Shown: positions 3,262-40,373 of the stretch, in pieces | How the letters are laid out: every line of letters starts with the position of its first letter | Numbering within the stretch: the stretch's first letter is position 1 | Assembly (NCBI RefSeq): GCF_011045215.1 | Contig: NZ_CP049201.1 | Origin: Escherichia coli | Lineage (GTDB): Bacteria > Pseudomonadota > Gammaproteobacteria > Enterobacterales > Enterobacteriaceae | Length of the DNA stretch: 64,000 nt | Reading direction: 5' to 3' (one strand) | Notes under the pieces: generated by a model | The model's input: only the letters and a program-made list of their open reading frames with translations | What the model was told of the DNA's origin: nothing | The model's database searches: none | Position numbers and translations under genes: made by a program

Positions 3262-5334
<2,073 letters not shown>

Positions 5335-5362
5335 CTATTAATTGGCTGATCGGACTTGTTCG

Positions 5363-5400
5363 GCGTACAAGTGTACGCTATTGTGCATTCGAAACTTACT
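5363..5400 (+). promoter_or_regulatory. fabB control region: FabR-type palindrome plus adjacent FadR-type site
   Basis: Perfect palindrome GCGTACAAGTGTACGC at 5363..5378 followed by ttgtgcattcgaaacttact just upstream of fabB; assignment is from memory of the fabB promoter. Confidence 0.5.
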
Positions 5401-5426
5401 CTATGTGCGACTTACAGAGGTATTGA

Positions 5427-6647
5427 ATGAAACGTGCAGTGATTACTGGCCTGGGCATTGTTTCCAGCATCGGTAATAACCAGCAGGAAGTCCTGGCATC
5501 TCTGCGTGAAGGACGTTCAGGGATCACTTTCTCTCAGGAGCTGAAGGATTCCGGCATGCGTAGCCACGTCTGGGGCAACGTAAAACTGGATACCACTGGC
5601 CTCATTGACCGCAAAGTTGTGCGCTTTATGAGCGACGCATCCATTTATGCATTCCTTTCTATGGAGCAGGCAATCGCAGATGCGGGCCTCTCTCCGGAAG
5701 CTTACCAGAATAATCCGCGCGTTGGCCTGATTGCAGGTTCTGGCGGCGGTTCCCCGCGTTTCCAGGTGTTCGGCGCTGACGCAATGCGCGGCCCGCGCGG
5801 CCTGAAAGCGGTTGGCCCGTATGTGGTCACCAAAGCGATGGCATCCGGCGTTTCTGCCTGCCTCGCCACCCCGTTTAAAATTCATGGCGTTAACTACTCC
5901 ATCAGCTCCGCGTGTGCGACTTCCGCACACTGTATCGGTAACGCAGTAGAGCAGATCCAACTGGGCAAACAGGACATCGTGTTTGCTGGCGGCGGCGAAG
6001 AGCTGTGCTGGGAAATGGCTTGCGAATTCGACGCAATGGGTGCGCTGTCTACTAAATACAACGACACCCCGGAAAAAGCCTCCCGTACTTACGACGCTCA
6101 CCGTGACGGTTTCGTTATCGCTGGCGGCGGCGGTATGGTGGTGGTTGAAGAGCTGGAACACGCGCTGGCGCGTGGTGCTCATATCTATGCTGAAATCGTT
6201 GGCTACGGCGCAACGTCTGATGGCGCAGACATGGTTGCTCCGTCTGGCGAAGGCGCAGTACGTTGTATGCAGATGGCGATGCATGGCGTTGATACCCCAA
6301 TCGATTACCTGAACTCCCACGGCACTTCGACTCCGGTTGGCGACGTGAAAGAGCTGGCAGCTATCCGTGAAGTGTTCGGCGATAAGAGCCCGGCGATTTC
6401 TGCAACCAAAGCCATGACCGGTCACTCTCTGGGCGCTGCTGGCGTACAGGAAGCTATCTACTCTCTGTTGATGCTGGAACACGGCTTTATCGCCCCGAGC
6501 ATCAACATTGAAGAGCTGGACGAGCAGGCTGCGGGTCTGAACATCGTGACCGAAACGACCGATCGCGAACTGACCACTGTTATGTCTAACAGCTTCGGCT
6601 TCGGCGGCACCAACGCCACGCTGGTAATGCGCAAGCTGAAGGATTAA
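5427..6647 (+). CDS. fabB: 3-oxoacyl-ACP synthase I (KAS I)
   Basis: 406 aa; active-site Cys context ([14 protein letters not shown]) and C-terminal [10 protein letters not shown]. Confidence 0.95.
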
Positions 6648-31285: not shown

Positions 31286-33037
31286 ATGATTCAGGACGCT
31301 TTTGTGCGCCAGCGTGCGCGACAACTTTACTGGCAGGGTTATCCGCCCGCAGAAATATCACGTCTGATGGGAATAAACCCGAACACGATTTATGCGTGGA
31401 AAAAACGCGACCAGTGGGATGAAACGCCACCCGTGCAGCGTGTCACGCAGTCCATCGATGCGCGTCTCATCCAGCTTACTGAAAAACAGAATAAAACAGG
31501 CGGTGACTTCAAGGAAATAGACCTGCTGACCCGGCAGCTTAAAAAGCTGCATGATGGCCAGCCGGATGTGACGGCCACAGGAAAGAAAGGCCGGGCGAAA
31601 AAACTCAAAAATCATTTCACGCCGGAACAGATTGCCGCACTGCGGGAAAAAATCATCAGCAGGCTGGAGTGGCATCAGCGGGGCTGGTTTGACTCCCTGA
31701 CCCTTTGCAGGGAAGCCGGGATACGTAACAGGATGATCCTGAAATCCCGACAGATTGGGGCGACCTGGTATTTTGCACAGGAAGCACTGCTGATGGCGCT
31801 GCGTGACGATGTGGCGCAACCTTACCAGCGTAACCAGATTTTTTTGTCTGCGTCGCGTCGTCAGGCGTTCCAGTTTAAAAGCATTATTCAGAAGGCCGCG
31901 GCTGAAGTTGATGTGGAGCTGAAAGGGGGCGATAAAATCATCCTCTCCAACGGCGCAGAGCTGCATTTTCTCGGCACTTCTGCTGCGTCGGCACAGTCCT
32001 ATACGGGCAATTTTTATTTTGATGAATTTTTCTGGGTCAGTCGCTTTGCTGAACTGCGCAAGGTGGCTGGCGCTATGGCAACCCTCAGCGGACTGCGGCG
32101 CACCTACTTCTCCACGCCATCCACCGAAACGCACGAGGCATACGCCTACTGGAACGGCGACCGCTGGAACGAGAAAAAGGCCTCGCATAAACGCCAGCGT
32201 TTTTCTGTGGACTGGAAAACGCTGCATAACGGGCTTATCTGCCCTGACCGGACGTGGCGGCAAATTGTCACGCTGGAAGATGTGGTTAATCACGGCTGGA
32301 AACACACCGATATTGACGAAATCCGTGATGAAAACACCGAAGACGAGTTCCTCAATCTCTATATGTGTGAGTTTGTTCGCGAAGGGGAATCGGCATTTAA
32401 CCTGAATATCCTGATTGGCTGCGGTGTTGACGGATACGACGACTGGAAAGACTGGAAACCTTTTGCTCCCCGCCCGATGGGGAATCGTCCGGTATGGATT
32501 GGGTATGACGCAAACGGCAGCAGTGGCAACGGCGACAGCGGCGCTGTGTCCGTGGTGGTTCCTCCGGCTGTTCCTGGTGGCCGTTTTCGAACGGTGGAGA
32601 CGCGACGCGTTCAGGGGCTGGAGTTTGAAGAACAGGCCAGAGTCATTGAAGAGTTCACGTATCGCTACAACGTGGAACACATCGGCATTGATGTGACGGG
32701 CGGGAACGGGGAGGCTGTTTATCAGATAGTGAAACGGTTTTTCCCTGCTGCTATTCCGTACACCTTCACGCTGTCATCAAAACGGTCGCTGGTACTGAAA
32801 ATGCTGCAAATAATGCGTGCCGGGCGGTGGGAATACGATCGCGCCGAACGCGAGCTGGTCGCGGCCTTTAACGCCGTGCGTAAGGTGAAAACACCGGGCG
32901 GCTTTATCACTTACGAAACGGACCGCGCGAGGGGGATCAGCCACGGCGACCTTGCGTGGGCAACCATGCTTGCTGTCATTAACGAACCGATTGGCGGCGA
33001 AGGAGAAAACGAGCGTTTCACGGTTATGGAGTTCTGA
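31286..33037 (+). CDS. P: terminase ATPase (large) subunit P
   Basis: 583 aa; divergent from O as in P2. Confidence 0.92.
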   Translation: MIQDAFVRQRARQLYWQGYPPAEISRLMGINPNTIYAWKKRDQWDETPPVQRVTQSIDARLIQLTEKQNKTGGDFKEIDLLTRQLKKLHDGQPDVTATGKKGRAKKLKNHFTPEQIAALREKIISRLEWHQRGWFDSLTLCREAGIRNRMILKSRQIGATWYFAQEALLMALRDDVAQPYQRNQIFLSASRRQAFQFKSIIQKAAAEVDVELKGGDKIILSNGAELHFLGTSAASAQSYTGNFYFDEFFWVSRFAELRKVAGAMATLSGLRRTYFSTPSTETHEAYAYWNGDRWNEKKASHKRQRFSVDWKTLHNGLICPDRTWRQIVTLEDVVNHGWKHTDIDEIRDENTEDEFLNLYMCEFVREGESAFNLNILIGCGVDGYDDWKDWKPFAPRPMGNRPVWIGYDANGSSGNGDSGAVSVVVPPAVPGGRFRTVETRRVQGLEFEEQARVIEEFTYRYNVEHIGIDVTGGNGEAVYQIVKRFFPAAIPYTFTLSSKRSLVLKMLQIMRAGRWEYDRAERELVAAFNAVRKVKTPGGFITYETDRARGISHGDLAWATMLAVINEPIGGEGENERFTVMEF

Positions 33038-34083
33038 TGAGCAGAAAAAATAAAAAAGTGCGCATGAGTTCACGCATTGATCTCGCTGATGCGCTCAGGA
33101 AAGAATCATCGCTCAGTGCATTCACATTTGATGGTCCTTATCGCCTGACCGGGCATGACCTGCTGGACAATATGTACTGTGCTGATAACGGGCGGTGGTA
33201 TGAAACCCCGGTGGACTGGTACGGTCTGGCAAGAGCTGCCCGGCAAACGTCCTGGCATCAGTCTGCGCTTTACTTTAAGCGCAATGTATTACTCGGTTGC
33301 TACATCCCGCACCCGCTGCTTTCCCGGCAGGATTTCTCGGCGCTGGCGCTGGACTGGTTTGTGTTCGGTAACGCATTCCTTGAGCTTCGGAGCAATATGC
33401 TCGGCGAACCACTTAAATTACGGCACGCACTGGCGAAATACATGCGACGCGGAAGCGATCTTGAATCATGGTGGTATGTGCAGGATGGCAAGGACGCGTT
33501 TCAGTTTCGCCCTGGCAAAGTGTGCCACCTGATGAATCCGGACATTAACCAGGAAATTTACGGCATGCCGGAATATCTTGGAGCATTACTCTCGGCCAGC
33601 CTGTCTCATTCGGCGGACATGTTCAGAAAACTGTATTACGACAACGGATCCCACGCCGGGTGCATCATCTACATCGGTGCAGCGCAGGTAAACCGCGAAA
33701 GCATGGACTCCCTGAAAGAAACGTTACAGGGTGCGCGTGGTGGTGGTGCGTTTAAAAACGTGCTCATCCACGCGCCCAACGGGGGCAAAGAGGGGGTGCA
33801 AATTTTGCCGTTCCAGCAGATCACCGCAAAGGATGAGTTCATGAATGTTAAGGCGGCATCCCGTGATGATGTGCTGGCTGCGCACCGCGTTCCGCCGCAA
33901 CTGATGGGGGCGATGCCGGGCGAAAAAAGTGCGTTTGGTGATGTGGAGAAGGCCGCGCGGGTTTACGCAATTAACGAGCTGATGCCCGTCATGGAGGCTA
34001 TGAAGCACATCAATGACTGGCTTGGCGAAGAGGTGATCCGCTTTAACCCTTACGCACTGCTGGACACCCAGCCCACATCCTGA
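33037..34083 (+). CDS. Q: portal vertex protein Q
   Basis: 348 aa; translationally coupled to P; P2 gpQ-like. Confidence 0.92.
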   Translation: MSRKNKKVRMSSRIDLADALRKESSLSAFTFDGPYRLTGHDLLDNMYCADNGRWYETPVDWYGLARAARQTSWHQSALYFKRNVLLGCYIPHPLLSRQDFSALALDWFVFGNAFLELRSNMLGEPLKLRHALAKYMRRGSDLESWWYVQDGKDAFQFRPGKVCHLMNPDINQEIYGMPEYLGALLSASLSHSADMFRKLYYDNGSHAGCIIYIGAAQVNRESMDSLKETLQGARGGGAFKNVLIHAPNGGKEGVQILPFQQITAKDEFMNVKAASRDDVLAAHRVPPQLMGAMPGEKSAFGDVEKAARVYAINELMPVMEAMKHINDWLGEEVIRFNPYALLDTQPTS

Positions 34084-34534: not shown

Positions 34535-34634
34535 GGTAAGCATGCCCATATATTTGACCGTAGCTTGCCTTTGATGTAGTTTATGCGTCACAAAAACCAC
34601 AAAACGTGGTTATGATTTCTATGAGGGGGTTGAT

Positions 34635-34670
34635 ATGAAAAAAATGTATGATGAATTTGATGGTTTCTAA
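34635..34670 (+). other. candidate 11-codon uORF (MKKMYDEFDGF)
   Basis: GAGGGGG 5 nt upstream of the ATG; stop lies 20 nt before a hairpin and T-tract. Confidence 0.25.
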
Positions 34671-34688
34671 GCTACGTTGACCTCTAAT

Positions 34689-34722
34689 GAGGCGGGGATT
34701 TGCTCCCCGCCTTTTTTATGGA
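34689..34722 (+). terminator. hairpin plus T-tract; also contains a P2 cos-like GAGGCGGGGA motif
   Basis: ggcggggatttgctccccgcc followed by TTTTTTAT; GAGGCGGGGA partially matches the remembered P2 cohesive-end sequence. Confidence 0.45.
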
Positions 34723-34731
34723 TGAAATAGG

Positions 34732-35229
34732 ATGAACCCAATAACACTACAAATCATCAGCAATGCTATTGTTCTGCTTGGCGTTTTGGTTGCCATTGGA
34801 ACCATTATCTACAATGTGCGTACCGCAAAAAAAACTCAAACGGCCAACTTTCTTTTTGAGAGTCGGCAAGATATGCAATATATAGAGTCATTGCATACCC
34901 TGAAACAAGTGCATCGTTCAGGCAAATCATTTCGTTCTTATGTTTTTCCTTGTGATGGTTGTACAATAACAGATGAGGAAATGGCCGAGCGTCGAAAATT
35001 TCAATATATTTTAAATTTTTACGAGCGAGTTGCTGTAAGTATTCGTGAAGGTATTTATGATGAAAAAATGATAAAAAGAACATCTTACACAACAGTTGTA
35101 GAGACATATGATATTGCCGAGCCATTAATTAAAGCAATCAGAGAAAGCATTAATTCGGATACTACATATCAAGAATTCGAATGGTTAGTAAGAAGATGGA
35201 AAGCTAATCCTTTACGGAAAAACAAATAA
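34732..35229 (+). CDS. hypothetical protein with single N-terminal TM helix (accessory cassette gene 1)
   Basis: 165 aa; N-terminal hydrophobic helix then a charged soluble domain; no family recognised. Confidence 0.65.
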   Translation: MNPITLQIISNAIVLLGVLVAIGTIIYNVRTAKKTQTANFLFESRQDMQYIESLHTLKQVHRSGKSFRSYVFPCDGCTITDEEMAERRKFQYILNFYERVAVSIREGIYDEKMIKRTSYTTVVETYDIAEPLIKAIRESINSDTTYQEFEWLVRRWKANPLRKNK

Positions 35230-35268
35230 TGTTTTACCCTTTAATTTACAAGTAACACAGGGGGAAGT

Positions 35269-36111
35269 GTGACACAGAATCCGTTTTCATTTTATGACTT
35301 TTTGGGCTATCTAATTCCAGGTGGGTTATTCCTGTTTATCCTTTTTTTGTTTTCTATTGAAATTAACCCTGTTTATATAGAAGGTATTCTTAACCACATC
35401 CTGAAATATAAAGAAATAATAAGTGTATTTATATATGTGGTATTAATTGTTCTATCATATATTTCAGGTCACTTCATATCTATTCTATCATCCTGTTTAA
35501 TTGAAAAATACATGAACAGTAAACTTGGGTATCCTTCAATTTATCTGTTTTCTAAAAGAAGCTCCCTGAAAATAAAACGACATAATACTAAGTTCAGTAT
35601 AGTTCATTTTATCCGTGGAGTTTTTTTACTTCCTGTATCAGCTTTTGATAAAGCAGAACATCATAAAACCACTCTGCATTCTATACTTATTAAAGTCTTT
35701 TGGCCGCAAATACGAGATGGTTATATAAATGTTTTTTCTGTATCTACGCTATATCGACGTAAGGGCTTGAGGGGCGATCTTTTTCGCCTTGCTTATCATT
35801 ATGTGTATGAACATTCTAAAAATCATCAGGTGAAAATGCAAAACTATGTTGCTTTGTATGGTTTTTGTAGAAACATTACATTTGTTTTTCTCGCTTCAGT
35901 CTGGTTGCTTATATGCCTGTTCCCTCTATCCTTTTTAATAGATATAAATATCAGGTTGTTACCTTTTTGTTTTCTTCTCTTGTTTTGTATTGCTGCATCC
36001 CGAGTATTTTATTATGGTTTTGTTAAGTATTATCGCCGCTATTCTCTTGAGGTTTTAATGGCATTTGCGGTACTTCAGCACGATAAAAAAACTTCGGCAA
36101 TTCCATCATGA
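35269..36111 (+). CDS. hypothetical polytopic membrane protein (accessory cassette gene 2)
   Basis: 280 aa, GTG start preceded by AGGGGGAAG; about 5-6 hydrophobic segments; visibly AT-rich; no family recognised. Confidence 0.65.
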   Translation: MTQNPFSFYDFLGYLIPGGLFLFILFLFSIEINPVYIEGILNHILKYKEIISVFIYVVLIVLSYISGHFISILSSCLIEKYMNSKLGYPSIYLFSKRSSLKIKRHNTKFSIVHFIRGVFLLPVSAFDKAEHHKTTLHSILIKVFWPQIRDGYINVFSVSTLYRRKGLRGDLFRLAYHYVYEHSKNHQVKMQNYVALYGFCRNITFVFLASVWLLICLFPLSFLIDINIRLLPFCFLLLFCIAASRVFYYGFVKYYRRYSLEVLMAFAVLQHDKKTSAIPS

Positions 36112-36194
36112 TTTGAAACATTGGCACCCTGTTAGCAAGGGTGCCAGAATGATGTGTTGGTATGTATTTTATTAGTTCAAATACAATTGTCAGA

Positions 36195-36509
36195 TTATTC
36201 TGGGAATAAGGTCTGAATATTCTTTTTTATTTTATAAAAATTGCATTCAACTCCGCTAGGCTGATTAGCCTGGTATGTTTCCTTGATGCTAACGGTATTG
36301 AAGGGGAGGTTGTCCTCTGGCCATTCGGCCATCCAGTAGGCAAATGCTGGGTTGCGCTTTATGAGTGCTAGCCCAGCCAGAAAGGCCGCGCGTTGCGCGC
36401 GGCTGCGTTCGGAGGCTGGCAGGCTATCGAGGTAATTGCACGCCTCCTGTTCACTCTTGACGGCGGCGGGCTTCAGATAGAAACTTATCCGTCTGGTTGG
36501 TGTCGTCAT
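36195..36509 (-). CDS. ParR-like partition adaptor / DNA-binding protein
   Basis: 104 aa; N-terminus (RRISFYLKP..CNYLDSLPASERSRAQRAAFLAGLALIKRNP) resembles plasmid R1 ParR as recalled; directly downstream of the ParM-like gene. Confidence 0.65.
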   Translation of the reverse strand: MTTPTRRISFYLKPAAVKSEQEACNYLDSLPASERSRAQRAAFLAGLALIKRNPAFAYWMAEWPEDNLPFNTVSIKETYQANQPSGVECNFYKIKKNIQTLFPE

Positions 36510-36513
36510 TGGT

Positions 36514-37473
36514 TTACTCCTTGTTCATTGCGTACAGTCCATTAACCAGAGCAAACTGTGGCACCCCGTCCGCGATGAAAGTCGCATTAACTCCGCAGGC
36601 TTCGCGGATAGCGGGTGCCACAATCTCCGCCCCGCCACCGACAACCATCACCCGCCCGTAACCCGAAAAAACCGCCAGCGCGCGGATCACGCGTTGTTTC
36701 AGTGTTTCTTCCTTTTCACGAATAACCGCCATCAGGCTGGCGTAATGCGCGTCATTGTGGATGTGCTGGCGCAGCCAGGCTTCATCATGGCGATGTTCGA
36801 TAATGGTATTGGCGATGTGGTGACTGGTGCGCATACCGTTAGTGGCCATCACCGACAGTACGGCATCGGCCATCAGAGAAACGCCTACGTGTGGATCGCA
36901 AAACACCTGGCTGATACCTGCCAGTTGCCCCTGGACCTTTGCCACATCCAGCGTGGTTCCGCCCAAATCCACAATCAGCAGGGATTCAAACGGACTCATG
37001 TCAGCCAGTGCCTTAAAGCCAGCCGGAATGGATTCAGGCATAACCCGTACGTTACGGATAGTGAATGCTTCGCCGTTCTGGTACTCCACCGGGCGCATGA
37101 CGTTCGCTTTTTTGCGGTTGATGTTGGCCATGTCCGGCTGTGCGTTTGTGTCGAAATATTCGCTCAGTGGCAGGGTGACAACCACATCCACTTCCTGTGG
37201 TGTGATGCCTGATTTGACCAGCGCGTGATGAATGGCAATGACATTCACATCGCTGTACTGGTATTGCGTGTCGGTCGTCTGGACAAAGCGATCGCTGACC
37301 GGATCAAAACCATAGCGCACGCCATCAACCATGTAGTTCGCGGGCTGCGTGCCACCGAACGGCGCAGACCATTCCGACTTGAAGCTGTTCGGGCTGATGG
37401 CGTTGCGGCGTTCGCCGTTCTCAGTCCATGCCAGCTTGATGTTGGTGGAGCCGTCATCGATACAAATTTTCAT
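36514..37473 (-). CDS. ParM/StbA-like actin-type segregation ATPase
   Basis: 319 aa; MKICIDDGSTNIKLAW..ISPNSF..YQYSDVNVIAIHHAL..VMPESIPAG..LIVDLGGTTLD..VMVVGGGAE resembles R1 ParM/StbA along its length. Confidence 0.85.
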   Translation of the reverse strand: MKICIDDGSTNIKLAWTENGERRNAISPNSFKSEWSAPFGGTQPANYMVDGVRYGFDPVSDRFVQTTDTQYQYSDVNVIAIHHALVKSGITPQEVDVVVTLPLSEYFDTNAQPDMANINRKKANVMRPVEYQNGEAFTIRNVRVMPESIPAGFKALADMSPFESLLIVDLGGTTLDVAKVQGQLAGISQVFCDPHVGVSLMADAVLSVMATNGMRTSHHIANTIIEHRHDEAWLRQHIHNDAHYASLMAVIREKEETLKQRVIRALAVFSGYGRVMVVGGGAEIVAPAIREACGVNATFIADGVPQFALVNGLYAMNKE

Positions 37474-37508: not shown

Positions 37509-37615
37509 CGGGATTCTGAAATCCCGTTTTTGCCTGTTTTATGCGCGCTTCATATATCGCGGCGCGTTTTTTGCTCATTTACGGGATTTGTGAATCCCGT
37601 TTCTGTCTGTTTTTT
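37509..37615. repeat. two copies of a ~33-bp direct repeat, each with an 18-bp hairpin palindrome
   Basis: cgggattctgaaatcccg (37509..37526) and cgggatttgtgaatcccg (37582..37599), each followed by a T-rich tail; the second lies within the last codons of A. Confidence 0.5.
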
Positions 37616-40373
37616 TGTTTCCACTGGTCAGGCTACCCTGCAGCAGGTCTGCTTTGCGGCGGGCGCGTTCAGTGGTTTCACTGATTCTCTGTGCGTGCTC
37701 TGCGTCACAAATGGCGCGCAGCATGTCAGAAAGCACGGTAACGGGTGTTTTCATGGTGTTCTGGACCTGCTGAAGTGTGGATGCCAGGCGTGCGGCGGCT
37801 TCGGGGTCTGATGCCCCGAGCTGTGCCAGATAGCTGGCGACCGGGTTATGGCGGATCTCCGTGCTGCTTACGCCGTGATTACGGCTCAGGCGCTGCCAGA
37901 GCTGCGTGATTCGGCTGTCCGGGCGGGTATCCGGTTTACGTACAATTTCAAATCCCTGCGGTGAAATGATGCTGCCGTCAACGTACAGACTGCCGCCCCG
38001 TAACAGGTGCTGCATCTGCTGTTCACCGATATGCAGGCCGAGAGATTCAGCAGACTCCCGCCATTCTTTAGCGAGTAACTCGTGGTTATCAGGCAAAGGC
38101 CGCGGCTGTTTGCGGCTCTGTGTCCAGCTCTGCATTTCATCGCTGCTGTTTTTTGCCTGTTTGTCACGAAGCGAACGCATCAGCGCCCGGCGTTCGTGCC
38201 GTTTCAGTGAGCGCATCCATTCATTCACTTCAACGCCGTCAGGAAGCTGCGGCCACGGTGCTGGCCGTTCTTCCGACTGTTCTGTCCCGCTGTTGCCTGT
38301 TTCCTGTACACGGGGACAGTTATTGCCACGAGTCCAAGGGGCGGCAGGGCCGCCCTGAAGGTCAAAACCATTTTCGCGGGCGCTGTCTTCCGCTTCCGGT
38401 TTACGTCTTACCAGCTTCCAGTTATCCGGATGCGTGCACACACGGGAGGATTCCCCGATGAGTGGTGACCAGATCCCGTAAATCTGTACGCTCTGTTCGC
38501 CGTAATCGTTCAGCTCATCTGCGAGGTCGTAGGCGGTGCGAATCAGGTAGTCTTTACGTGGAACAAGTACGCCACCCTGTTTCTCAATGTAGGTGGCAAA
38601 ACATCCGGCATCAGCGGCAGCAAGAACCGCATCCATTGCGTCATCCTTCAGCCGTTGCGGGCCTTCCGGGTTGCGTGCCATCTGGCTGGCAAGGCGGCGG
38701 AGTTCACGCCACACCTGACGGGAGGGAATGCCAAAGAACTGGAACTGGCGGACCCGGTGAAGGCGCGCCCAGCCGATGGCGCGCTCCACGCTCTCGGCCA
38801 TTGATTTACCTGTTTCGTGGTCAACGCGTGGCTTGCCCGTTTTCGGGTCGATGCCATCCACGGCACGGCTGTCCAGGTTTTTCCCAATGTAGGTGGCGAT
38901 GTAGCTGGTCGGTGTGCCTTTTGAGCCGTCGACGTACTCCGCCTTAAAGCGTGGGGTAATATCATCACCCAGCTCGTGACGATCTTCCTGAATGGCAATA
39001 TCGCGGGTGTGGGACACAATGGTGTCGATTTCTTCCGGATGAGCAAAGACCATCATATGCCAGTGCACGGTGCCGTCATGGTGAGGCTCCACCGTGCGGA
39101 TGCCATACCAGCGCAGGCCGTCGCGGTTCAGTTTCTTGCGGACCGCCGCAAAAAACGTGTTAACCAGGTAATCGCTGGAGTCGCGCATGGTGGCCCCGTT
39201 CCATTTGGGATTCGGATGACCGTTCTCCGTTGTTGCGTGGTATTTTGACGGGCAGGTGACAGTCAGAAACACCGCTCTGTCGCCACGGGCTTCGGCCAGA
39301 AGTTCCAGCCCCTTCATGGTGGCCATCATTTCTGCCTTACGGTGAACCGGGTTACTTACTCCCGCGTAATACACTGTCTCGAGATCAATCGTGAACCCGT
39401 CTTCATTTTCCAGCATGAAACTTTTCAGGAAATCGCGTGTTTTCTCGCGCTGTGCGCGAAACTCGCTTAACGCGTCCTGGCTCAGATATGGTGATGTTTT
39501 TCTGGAAACCAGACAGGCGGCGCGGAGTTGTTCTTCTCTCCACTCGCAACGTAACAGCCACAGTTTGCGTTTCCACCATTCCGCACAGGTCAGGCGAAGG
39601 ATTGCGCCCGGCAGCAGCTCCGTGTCCGGTTCGTTCCTCCGGTCTTTGTCTGTCGTCAGTGCGTCATAATGTGGAGGCATGGCGTGCAGGTGTAACGCCA
39701 TGCGGGCCAGCATCTGATACGCCTTCAGCGTTACATCCATGGTCAGTTCACCATCAGTCGCGCCAAAGCCATCGCAGAGTTTTTCGAAGGTGCTGCTGAA
39801 CATCGCCGCCGTCATGGTGGCCAGCGTCTGTATCTGGTGTTTGTTGAGCTGCGGCAGGTAAAGCAAATCGTCCAGGCGTTCGCGTCCGGCAAGGGAGCGA
39901 TAACCCGGTGTCAGCCAGCGTCCGTCAGTGCGATCCAGACGTTCGAATATTTTGCGCAGGGTTCCGCGTGCATAGCGTTCCGCCTGCCAGCTCTTTTTGC
40001 CTTTCCTGCGATCGGCTTCCTGTTTTTTGCGCAGGAAGGAGAGGTGGCGAATAAGCGGATCGCGCAGATAGGACGGCAGCAGGCGCAGCGAGGCCATGGC
40101 TTCATCCACCGCGCCGCGTGCCTGTTTTCTGGCGTCTCCTGCCAGTGTGATGGTTTTGTCCTGTTTTTCCTGTGCGTCCAGGCTTTTATTAATCAGGTTG
40201 CCCAGCGGCGTGGCGGAGAACGCCGCATCAGCCATTTCCTGGCGGCGCTCGTTCTCTGCCCGGTAGGCATCCAGCCAGGAGGAAAGCGCGGATTCAGGAG
40301 CGGGGATCCCCGTTCCTTCACGCCCCACTGCGTGGCGCGGTTGTTGCCAGTCCCTGATGTACTCTGCCGTCAT
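37575..40373 (-). CDS. A: replication initiation endonuclease A (rolling-circle initiator)
   Basis: 932 aa; ..VHWHMMVF.. and ..YIATYIGKN.. (HUH and catalytic-Tyr contexts) as in P2 gpA. Confidence 0.88.
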   Translation of the reverse strand: MTAEYIRDWQQPRHAVGREGTGIPAPESALSSWLDAYRAENERRQEMADAAFSATPLGNLINKSLDAQEKQDKTITLAGDARKQARGAVDEAMASLRLLPSYLRDPLIRHLSFLRKKQEADRRKGKKSWQAERYARGTLRKIFERLDRTDGRWLTPGYRSLAGRERLDDLLYLPQLNKHQIQTLATMTAAMFSSTFEKLCDGFGATDGELTMDVTLKAYQMLARMALHLHAMPPHYDALTTDKDRRNEPDTELLPGAILRLTCAEWWKRKLWLLRCEWREEQLRAACLVSRKTSPYLSQDALSEFRAQREKTRDFLKSFMLENEDGFTIDLETVYYAGVSNPVHRKAEMMATMKGLELLAEARGDRAVFLTVTCPSKYHATTENGHPNPKWNGATMRDSSDYLVNTFFAAVRKKLNRDGLRWYGIRTVEPHHDGTVHWHMMVFAHPEEIDTIVSHTRDIAIQEDRHELGDDITPRFKAEYVDGSKGTPTSYIATYIGKNLDSRAVDGIDPKTGKPRVDHETGKSMAESVERAIGWARLHRVRQFQFFGIPSRQVWRELRRLASQMARNPEGPQRLKDDAMDAVLAAADAGCFATYIEKQGGVLVPRKDYLIRTAYDLADELNDYGEQSVQIYGIWSPLIGESSRVCTHPDNWKLVRRKPEAEDSARENGFDLQGGPAAPWTRGNNCPRVQETGNSGTEQSEERPAPWPQLPDGVEVNEWMRSLKRHERRALMRSLRDKQAKNSSDEMQSWTQSRKQPRPLPDNHELLAKEWRESAESLGLHIGEQQMQHLLRGGSLYVDGSIISPQGFEIVRKPDTRPDSRITQLWQRLSRNHGVSSTEIRHNPVASYLAQLGASDPEAAARLASTLQQVQNTMKTPVTVLSDMLRAICDAEHAQRISETTERARRKADLLQGSLTSGNKKTDRNGIHKSRK

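Follow-up and report, generated by a model that had tools for sequence, protein, structure and literature searches.

Two adjacent, AT-rich genes for membrane proteins lie between portal gene Q and replication gene A of a P2-like prophage of Escherichia coli, and they raise the question of whether they form one two-gene system or two units that stand side by side. They are found in a stretch of 64,000 nucleotides (nt), the whole of the DNA analysed here and hereafter called the window, which is 100% identical to the sequence of E. coli KSC9, the strain of this prophage. An earlier note on the window, made from its letters alone, had singled the genes out as a two-gene cassette and as a candidate for an undescribed system. 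With open reading frame abbreviated as ORF, amino acids as aa, and transmembrane as TM, the two genes are:

34732-35229, + strand: ORF1, the DUF4760 protein, ATG start, 165 aa, one TM helix
35258-36111, + strand: ORF2 with its ribosome-binding site, GTG start at 35269, 280 aa, four TM helices, Csx27-like

The answer that we favour, at about even confidence, is that the "cassette" consists of two independent single-gene inner-membrane modules in tandem, each acting alone against incoming phages.

The physical description given in the earlier note held up. The two ORFs are co-oriented, at 34732-35229 and 35269-36111 on the + strand, and encode membrane proteins, the first with one and the second with four TM helices by hydropathy and AlphaFold models. 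They are also AT-rich, with 32-35% GC against about 55% in the flanks: ORF1 has 35.1% GC and 27% at third codon positions (GC3), and ORF2 32.1% and 26%, compared with 54-58% GC and 61-65% GC3 for genes P, Q, parM, and A, while along the DNA the GC content is 29-35% in the cassette and 51-60% in its flanks.

The claim that the system was undescribed did not survive, since ORF1 belongs to the Pfam family DUF4760 and the pair is listed as "System #3, DUF4760" in Table S5B of Rousset et al. 2022. These authors analysed the Q-A locus of 18,150 E. coli P2-like prophages and recorded 1,102 occurrences of System #3 among them, with the remark "1 TM in protein 1, 4 TM in protein 2" (PMC9122126). The System #3 proteins are 97-99% identical to the products of ORF1 and ORF2 and come from the same Q-A locus. 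They are treated there as one system, in a catalogue entry only, which makes no mention of separability, of a leader, of a link to Csx27, or of an EP-like fold. The N-terminal sequence of neither protein is present in the tested-construct tables of that study, and the systems named as cloned in its text are others (PMC9122126). In a 2026 preprint on P2 and P4 hotspots, tests of loci with unknown function were limited to P4, and in the searchable literature the name DUF4760 turns up in a single paper, on an unrelated subject. Regarding its distribution, the cassette is present in 288 of 5,426 complete E. coli genomes, ST131 among them, and also in three deposited P2-like phages.

Distribution of ORF1 and ORF2 Relatives

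Outside this E. coli lineage, the relatives of the two genes are found apart. In E. coli, Salmonella, Enterobacter, and Klebsiella, ORF2 relatives with about 44% identity abound; they are solitary, with no DUF4760 gene present, either in lambdoid prophages, next to xis/int and immediately ahead of a DUF4224/integrase pair, or in a CPS-53-like element. A hidden Markov model (HMM) of DUF4760, built from an enterobacterial alignment, gave no match, even at E ≤ 10, in 74 diverse genomic ORF2 loci from Gammaproteobacteria, Bacteroidota, Firmicutes, Verrucomicrobia, and others, although the model is narrow and remote members could escape it, as it scores only 104-171 bits on viral homologues that are 33-39% identical.

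The same separation is seen from the side of ORF1. DUF4760 homologues with 47-79% identity stand alone in a Pectobacterium P2-like hotspot, in a Yersinia lambdoid prophage, where the gene lies between tail genes, and in a Providencia phage. In IMG/VR, adjacency of the two genes is restricted to an E. coli variant at least 97% identical, which accounts for 7 of the 59 ORF2 loci, and none of about 40 DUF4760 loci with at most 90% identity to the window protein has an ORF2 gene within 6 kb.

The P2-like phages show what may replace ORF2. In at least 12 further P2-like loci, a DUF4760 gene follows portal Q at a distance of about 600 bp and in the same orientation, and the cargo behind it, before gene A, is Gabija, Dam-like methyltransferases, or a ParA-like pair, the Gabija system being complete (GajA, E = 7e-228; GajB, E = 2e-146). 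The locus thus varies among related prophages, as the earlier note had expected of accessory cargo, and because the cargo behind a Q-proximal DUF4760 gene varies, ORF2 sits in a variable defence slot. DUF4760 is the more persistent accessory gene at the Q-proximal edge of this slot. In these other P2-like phages its GC content is 43-46%, against 35% for the E. coli allele.

Within E. coli, ORF2 is the more variable partner of the pair. One contig, L201, keeps both genes, with DUF4760 99.6% identical to the window at the nt level and ORF2 only 88.7% (86% at the aa level, with a ratio of nonsynonymous to synonymous substitution rates, dN/dS, of 0.28), and this difference places a recombination break in the 39-nt spacer between them. 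The spacer holds a strong Shine-Dalgarno site, GGGGGAA, ahead of the GTG of ORF2, and the terminator scan found no terminator in it. Upstream of the ORF2 relatives lie AT-rich regions of their own that include Shine-Dalgarno sites, and no leader of the type that precedes DUF4760 was found there.

These observations bear on the view, followed in the catalogue of Rousset et al. and in the terms "cassette" and "system" of the earlier note, that the genes form a genuine two-component system; DUF4760 would then sense or regulate and the 4-TM protein would be the membrane effector, or the reverse, both being co-transcribed. The genes are indeed co-oriented, 39 nt apart, with no terminator between them and with similar AT content; they co-occur in about 288 E. 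coli genomes and 1,102 hotspot loci; their pairing is kept in the variant whose ORF2 is 86% identical; and other systems of the hotspot pair a cytoplasmic sensor with TM effectors. Nevertheless, the genes adjoin each other in one shallow lineage only and elsewhere, at more than 150 loci, both families are solitary, the recombination break falls between the genes, ORF2 relatives carry their own Shine-Dalgarno upstream regions and share no leader, and DUF4760 retains its own leader wherever it is found. We therefore regard a two-component system as rather unlikely, and prefer to treat the genes as two modules.

A Leader Mini-Gene Ahead of ORF1

The earlier note had overlooked a leader ORF and a terminator ahead of ORF1. 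The elements of this upstream region are:

34587-34616, + strand: promoter-like site, GTCACA-18-TATGAT, from a consensus scan only
34623-34629, + strand: Shine-Dalgarno site of the leader, GAGGGGG, read from the sequence
34635-34670, + strand: leader ORF, MKKMYDEFDGF-stop, 11 codons, read from the sequence
34661-34674, + strand: stop-codon hairpin of 5 bp with loop UCUA and the leader stop at its apex, predicted by RNAalifold
34689-34719, + strand: intrinsic terminator, GAGGCGGGGA-TTTGC-TCCCCGCCTT and a T-run, from a terminator scan

Promoter-like sites are no more numerous in this region than in shuffled sequences, and the only support for the one listed is its position ahead of the leader. 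The stem of the terminator (34689-34713) has 10 pairs, 7 of them G-C, and is followed by the T-run, about 12 nt past which lies the ATG of ORF1 at 34732; the Shine-Dalgarno site of ORF1 itself is weak or absent.

This arrangement recurs throughout the family, in which nearly every DUF4760 gene examined is preceded by a Shine-Dalgarno site and an ORF of 7-21 codons, and nearly always by a terminator too. A short ORF ending in [DE][DE]F[DE][GW][FV]-stop is found upstream of DUF4760 in 53 of 62 loci. The remaining nine comprise two that lack upstream sequence, two that represent one contig with an insertion sequence (IS) in the terminator, and five high-GC phages with the variant leaders MTFKRDDYEGF, MRDVVDGF, MKDVIGGF, MREVIDGL, and MRDVIDGL, each with a hairpin behind it. 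The leader is kept even where the identity of DUF4760 drops to 26-37%: in Pseudomonas phage zjk6 it ends in REEYEGI-stop and in Acinetobacter phage PhabP_R1 in MNEGWDF-stop, both with a stem enclosing the stop and a terminator, while Alteromonas phage P24 has MNLRDGWDDI-stop and no clear terminator. Conversely, the motif is specific to this position, as a search of 2.1 Mb in six frames returned 57 occurrences, of which 55 are directly upstream of DUF4760 and the other two are split from it by an IS.

The pattern of substitutions concerns the peptide. Over the six motif codons of 20 distinct enterobacterial leaders, codon positions 1 and 2 are 98% conserved and position 3 only 59%, with pairwise differences numbering 613 at position 3, 72 at position 1, and none at position 2; as judged from this contrast between codon positions, the leader ORF is under selection at the level of its peptide. 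The RNA appears to be constrained as well, since 83% of the cells of the stop-codon hairpin are paired, compared with 71.6 ± 2.5% in shuffles (0 of 500 reach 83%), with 15 double-sided changes where 5.5 are expected, and no slid register exceeds 52%. In addition, non-coding bases past the stop change in concert with the synonymous third positions of the codons for Asp and Gly. The support that this lends to the hairpin is moderate, because the sequences are related.

A terminator hairpin was predicted by RNAfold in all 20 leaders folded, each judged from its single-sequence fold. The stems differ in sequence (for example GGCGGGG/CCCCGCC, GCGGAGCC/GGCTCCGC, and GATCGGAGGC/GCCTCCGATT) and lie 17-47 nt behind the leader stop, and RNAalifold missed them in the leader alignment because they are out of register. 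An alternative pairing, CCUC:GAGG, occurs only in the P2-like subgroup of leaders. A scan of the leader against Rfam returned no family close to the gathering score, and in the literature that could be searched the peptide motif does not occur. The unit of leader and terminator ahead of DUF4760 seems to be undescribed.

Leader-peptide attenuators and nascent-peptide arrest elements, such as tnaC and the leaders of erm/cat and ARE-ABCF genes, offer the closest comparison. They share with the DUF4760 leader the succession of a Shine-Dalgarno site and a short ORF, a terminator, and then the regulated gene, and, as in arrest elements, the conservation of the peptide is strongest beside the stop codon. 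They differ in that none of the described leaders has the motif (D/E)(D/E)F(D/E)G(F)-stop, and in that the gene behind it encodes a phage membrane protein rather than a biosynthetic or resistance enzyme or protein. A further possible resemblance is that of the acidic-aromatic C-terminus ...FDEFDGF-COOH (34650-34670) to the tip of SSB, ...DFDDDIPF-COOH, and to the acidic tails ending in Phe of T7 gp2.5 and gp4.

The leader also exists without DUF4760. A family of non-mobilizable plasmids of 46-49 kb carries MKKRYDEFDGF-stop with a compensated terminator stem, at positions 2501-2622 of locus L205 (E. coli plasmid pGPT24-02-C) and in six PLSDB plasmids, and the homology between the plasmid leader and the P2-like leader breaks right after TTTTTTATGG, past the terminator. 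Because these orphans form one lineage, at least 98.8% identical, a remnant and a functional orphan are both possible.

A different alteration is seen in L091 (the same contig as L143), where an IS with a 372-aa transposase, at 4675-5793, lies in the terminator hairpin of the leader, removes the 5' arm of the stem, and brings the distance between the leader ORF and DUF4760 to about 1.4 kb. The idea that this is a selected, "deregulated" variant was set aside: the transposase presumably resembles that of IS186, an element that targets GC-rich hairpins, and this preference explains the insertion.

At this point, it must be asked whether the leader and DUF4760 constitute a toxin-antitoxin-like unit for abortive infection or addiction, in which an excess of leader peptide or RNA neutralises DUF4760 as a membrane toxin. 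Host shut-off would then cause the labile leader product to be lost and the toxin to be freed; both the unit and this mode of release seem to us improbable. The reading would account for the order of promoter, strongly translated short ORF, terminator, and poorly translated membrane protein, and this order recalls the type III system ToxIN, in which a terminator between toxI and toxN sets the ratio of the two, a likeness that lies in the gene order alone (short product, terminator, larger product). It would agree, moreover, with the peptide-level selection on the leader, with the partial tracking of DUF4760 clades by peptide variants, and with the intact leader on the 46-49 kb plasmids, which resembles an orphan antitoxin or anti-defence element. 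Against this, conservation next to the stop and a stop codon within a hairpin are more typical of cis-acting control by a nascent peptide, the orphan leader is of a single lineage and could be what a deletion left behind, and the toxicity of DUF4760 is only presumed. We know of no peptide antitoxin as short as the leader peptide.

The DUF4760 Protein

ORF1 matches Pfam DUF4760 (PF15956) with E = 1.3e-34 over model positions 2-141 of 141, as do all 43 of its aligned relatives, and it falls in phrog_2284 (E = 4e-74, "unknown function"). Its AlphaFold2 model (predicted local distance difference test, pLDDT, 92.8) has an N-terminal TM helix followed by an all-helical domain. Residues R45, E98, E111, K115, R137, E148, E150, and W156 are invariant. 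Members of the family occur in phages of Enterobacterales, Pseudomonas, Alteromonas, and Acinetobacter as solitary genes, AT-rich relative to their flanks, next to tail genes or to integrase and immunity genes, and DUF4760 is in this sense a classic moron. A profile search for remote members returned the same enterobacterial subfamily only.

No established function was recovered for either protein of the pair, and in this the earlier note, which recognised neither, was right: searches of PADLOC, NCBIfam, PHROGs, and Pfam gave no match to a P2 core protein, to a metabolic or transport function, or to an established defence family, the only result of PADLOC being a weak match of ORF2 to Csx27, while NCBIfam returned nothing. 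Neither family has a solved-structure relative by sequence. As for Old and Tin of P2, PADLOC, which we take to hold models for both, gave no similarity to either protein, and what is common to them is the genomic position. Phages are known to encode inner-membrane exclusion proteins as morons, such as HK97 gp15, P22 SieA, and T4 Imm, which are likewise small inner-membrane proteins specified by AT-rich accessory genes among tail or late genes or in hotspots; they differ from ORF1 and ORF2 in that no similarity to them appeared in PADLOC or PHROGs. A defence or exclusion role for either gene is plausible.

Two candidate relationships were considered and rejected. Kinship of DUF4760 with the 1-TM proteins of the AC1 TIR system and the RT-nitrilase system received an hhalign probability of 0.4-0.5%, and identity with Rst_2TM_1TM_TIR (phage AC1, Rousset 2022) was dismissed as there is no TIR gene in the locus, the hhalign probability is 0.4%, and there is no PADLOC match.

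Two observations on other members of the family may be recorded here. In Serratia-type phage loci (L120, 6529-8033; L122, 6578-7520), two or three paralogous AT-rich genes come after DUF4760, each encoding a protein of about 160 aa that has a TM helix at its N-terminus and gave no PADLOC match; this looks like an array of small membrane morons. In Acinetobacter phage A3926.3 (L208, 1207-2067), the DUF4760-like region is the C-terminal part of an annotated 286-aa protein, possibly a fusion or an N-terminal extension.

Predicted EP-like Fold of DUF4760

The predicted fold of DUF4760 is of the all-helical EP type. The EP domain (PF18117) of the plant proteins EDS1, PAD4, and SAG101 is the receptor for ADP-ribose-derived nucleotides made by TIR proteins, and the EDS1 family has a lipase-like domain at its N-terminus and forms heterodimers that bind such nucleotides, whereas the 165-aa DUF4760 protein has only a TM anchor before its bundle. 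This is a lead at the level of fold and not of homology, as the comparison set a predicted model against solved structures. No match to the EDS1 family or EDS1_EP appeared in an HMM search of PDB sequences or in Pfam scans of 43 members, the only PDB sequences matched by DUF4760 at E ≤ 10 being nopaline-binding proteins, and no TIR gene was seen near DUF4760 in the loci inspected.

A bolder possibility, and in our view a very improbable one, is that DUF4760 is a phage and bacterial counterpart of the EP domain, a helical bundle tethered to the membrane as a ligand sensor, with its family-wide mini-gene for an acidic-aromatic peptide ending in ...DEFDGF as part of the switch. The peptide could then be a nascent sensor that gates read-through of the terminator, or a trans-acting ligand or antitoxin. 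In the plant literature the EP domain is considered "unique" and the family is dated to seed plants (10.1101/572826; PMC9153377).

The Csx27-like Protein

ORF2 matches no Pfam family and falls in phrog_12528 (E = 1e-71, "unknown function"). At E ≤ 1e-3, a library of 1.84 billion proteins yielded 683 representatives of its family, and 92 homologues have in common the N-terminal motif NPFSxYDFLGYLIPG, whose fit led us to accept the GTG at 35269 as the start. The invariant residues are F6, D10, G13, Y14, P17, Y64, G67, E79, H177, Y193, R201, and K253; the polar set comprises D10, E79, H177, K189, N192-Y193, R201, K253, and E261, with H68, E181, and H186 nearly invariant. In the AlphaFold model (pLDDT 87.7), four TM helices are predicted, the second and third of which (TM2 and TM3) are separated by an insert of about 125 aa. 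From the positive-inside rule, hydropathy, and the AlphaFold models, this insert and the soluble domain of ORF1 probably face the cytoplasm. The conserved polar residues would lie at the cytoplasmic ends of the TM helices, a position more in keeping with a specific site for binding or catalysis than with a featureless pore. The relatives of ORF2 in AFDB are all uncharacterised, and fold and sequence searches of the PDB returned nothing specific.

The link with Csx27 comes from PADLOC, whose profile matches ORF2 with E = 6e-6 and nine of ten diverse ORF2 relatives with E values from 1e-8 to 3e-3, at only 16-34 bits, scores that membrane-protein composition could inflate. With scores far too weak for membership, ORF2 is by sequence comparison at best a remote relative of Csx27. 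Csx27 itself, with its four TM helices, belongs to type VI-B1 CRISPR-Cas13b as an accessory protein and represses Cas13b. In the papers that cite Makarova 2019 on this point, it is described as a proposed membrane channel for nucleic acids (PMC7642515, PMC11662929). The likeness consists of four TM helices and defence contexts, and the profile match, weak as its scores are, covers most of the length of the Csx27 profile. On the other hand, the Csx27 profile has 206 positions whereas ORF2 has 280 aa with its extra cytoplasmic insert, and Csx27 adjoins cas13b and a CRISPR array whereas ORF2 in the window is flanked on both sides by P2 phage genes. Clustering of neighbours in the 74 ORF2 loci, done without a Cas13b HMM, revealed no Cas13b or other recurrent large partner; in the 59 viral loci, the screen extended only to DUF4760 and a few reference proteins of phages.

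The neighbours of the family point to defence. Of 20 randomly chosen flanking proteins, 7 match PADLOC at E ≤ 1e-5, in 6 of 10 loci, a count made without a matched control; the matches are REase III, Shedu SduA, a type I S subunit, RmrA, a PtuB-like HNH protein, PDC-S66/CHAT, and PD-Lambda-3_A. SIR2- and HerA-like genes, identified by eye, also occur upstream of ORF2 homologues in several Prevotella/Bacteroides loci. The best-supported description of ORF2 is a stand-alone, Csx27-like inner-membrane protein of defence islands; it might block the entry of DNA or collapse the membrane in response to a phage cue. As a separate observation, conserved proteins of 323 aa and 93 aa precede the ORF2 homologues at 5-6 loci (L072, L073, L084, and related Prevotella/Bacteroides, genes -1 to -4), in some of which the HerA-like ATPase and SIR2-like genes are located further upstream, and this could be a conserved multi-gene context of the family in Bacteroidota.

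Genomic Setting

The surroundings of the pair in the window are:

31286-33037: terminase gene P
33037-34083: portal gene Q
36123-36145: hairpin GGCACCCT-GTTAGCA-AGGGTGCC, between ORF2 and the convergent parR-like gene, read from the sequence
36195-36509, - strand: ParR-like gene (phrog_2515)
36514-37473, - strand: ParM/StbA-like gene (phrog_691)
37575-40373, - strand: replication gene A

These flanks place the pair in the Q-A hotspot. The earlier note had it between Q and A, which stands, with the addition that a ParMR module also separates the pair from A. The site was also correctly equated with that of old and tin in P2, being the cos-proximal P2 hotspot (PMC9122126), an experimentally supported reservoir of anti-phage systems (PMC9122126). 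The cos site itself could not be placed in the window, because no match to the P2 cos core sequence was found anywhere in it at up to 3 mismatches. ParMR accompanies the cassette in the E. coli arrangements seen in Table S5A (PMC9122126). The hairpin at 36123-36145 has no T-run and is absent from the output of the terminator scan; it may be a bidirectional transcript end.

Two further observations concern the prophage and its host. Gene A of strain KSC9 is annotated in RefSeq as a frameshifted pseudogene, and in the window the gene A region (37550-40373, - strand) has an open frame of 932 aa, compared with 768-879 aa for gpA in related loci; the KSC9-type prophage may be replication-defective. 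The source genome NZ_CP018323.1 (KSC9) has two places that match the cassette (H4 and H34), and the chromosome may thus carry another P2-like prophage or an incomplete copy.

Proposed Mechanism and Weighing of the Evidence

If the pair is made of two independent modules, the first would run from the putative promoter through the strongly translated leader ORF, the stop hairpin, and the terminator to DUF4760 with its poor ribosome-binding site. Such a layout would keep the DUF4760 protein very scarce unless termination is overcome, and tight throttling of this kind would suit a membrane-active protein that does harm at high levels. The leader may gate the expression of DUF4760, or its product may counteract the protein. 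Control could be exerted in cis by the nascent peptide at termination, a mechanism favoured by the anchoring of conservation at the last residues and by the stop-codon hairpin; alternatively, a labile peptide or RNA, made in larger amounts than a membrane toxin at a ratio fixed by the terminator, could act in trans, which the orphan leader and the modular break in homology favour. The second module would be the Csx27-like 4-TM protein, in the variable slot used elsewhere for Gabija or other cargo. Each protein would act at the inner membrane of the lysogen, by phage exclusion or abortive infection.

A number of points weigh against this reading. In E. coli, ORF1 and ORF2 are nearly always together (298 and 288 of 5,426 genomes, respectively), and this co-occurrence, the 39-nt spacing, the lack of a terminator between them, and their equal AT-richness make cooperation in this lineage possible. 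No antiterminator common to all leaders was found, the minimum free energy folds consisting of the terminator and the small stop hairpin. The count of defence neighbours around ORF2 is uncontrolled, as stated above, and the pair, although catalogued, was apparently never tested by Rousset et al. Non-defence cargo such as ParMR is present in about a quarter of P2-like hotspots (PMC9122126). Finally, DUF4760 is usually co-directional inside late operons and could therefore serve the lytic cycle of the phage itself.

The last two points lead to the view that the genes have no part in defence and act instead in lysis timing, DNA exit or entry, membrane homeostasis, or, with ParMR, a plasmid-like prophage state. 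DUF4760 is typically embedded in late structural operons, antiterminated late transcription in lambdoid phages would presumably read through the leader terminator, the cassette accompanies ParMR in all the E. coli arrangements seen, and hotspots carry cargo unrelated to defence. Yet both are AT-rich accessory genes of patchy distribution, P2-like loci without ParMR can carry DUF4760, ORF2 relatives are found among restriction-modification, Shedu, and SIR2/HerA genes in non-phage defence islands, and neither protein resembles known holins, spanins, or partition proteins. We accordingly give a role outside defence only a small chance, and retain two independent anti-phage modules as the reading preferred.

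Significance

Among the cargoes of the E. coli P2 hotspot the cassette ranks third in frequency, and about 5% of complete E. coli genomes carry it. Its division into two separable modules changes how it is to be tested and how the "systems" of such hotspots are delimited. With ORF2, the Csx27-like membrane proteins, a family still poorly understood, come to include genes that stand alone in prophages and defence islands. The leader, whether cis element or mini-gene, is compact and strongly conserved, goes with a widespread family of phage genes, and could represent a new regulatory or antitoxin principle. The EP-like fold of DUF4760, if confirmed, bears on the origin of a central plant immune receptor domain, and if DUF4760 were truly an EP counterpart switched by its leader peptide, it would represent a new type of immune effector, membrane-bound and under the control of a peptide, and the roots of the "plant-unique" EP domain would lie in prokaryotes or viruses, as is already established for TIR and NLR-like modules.

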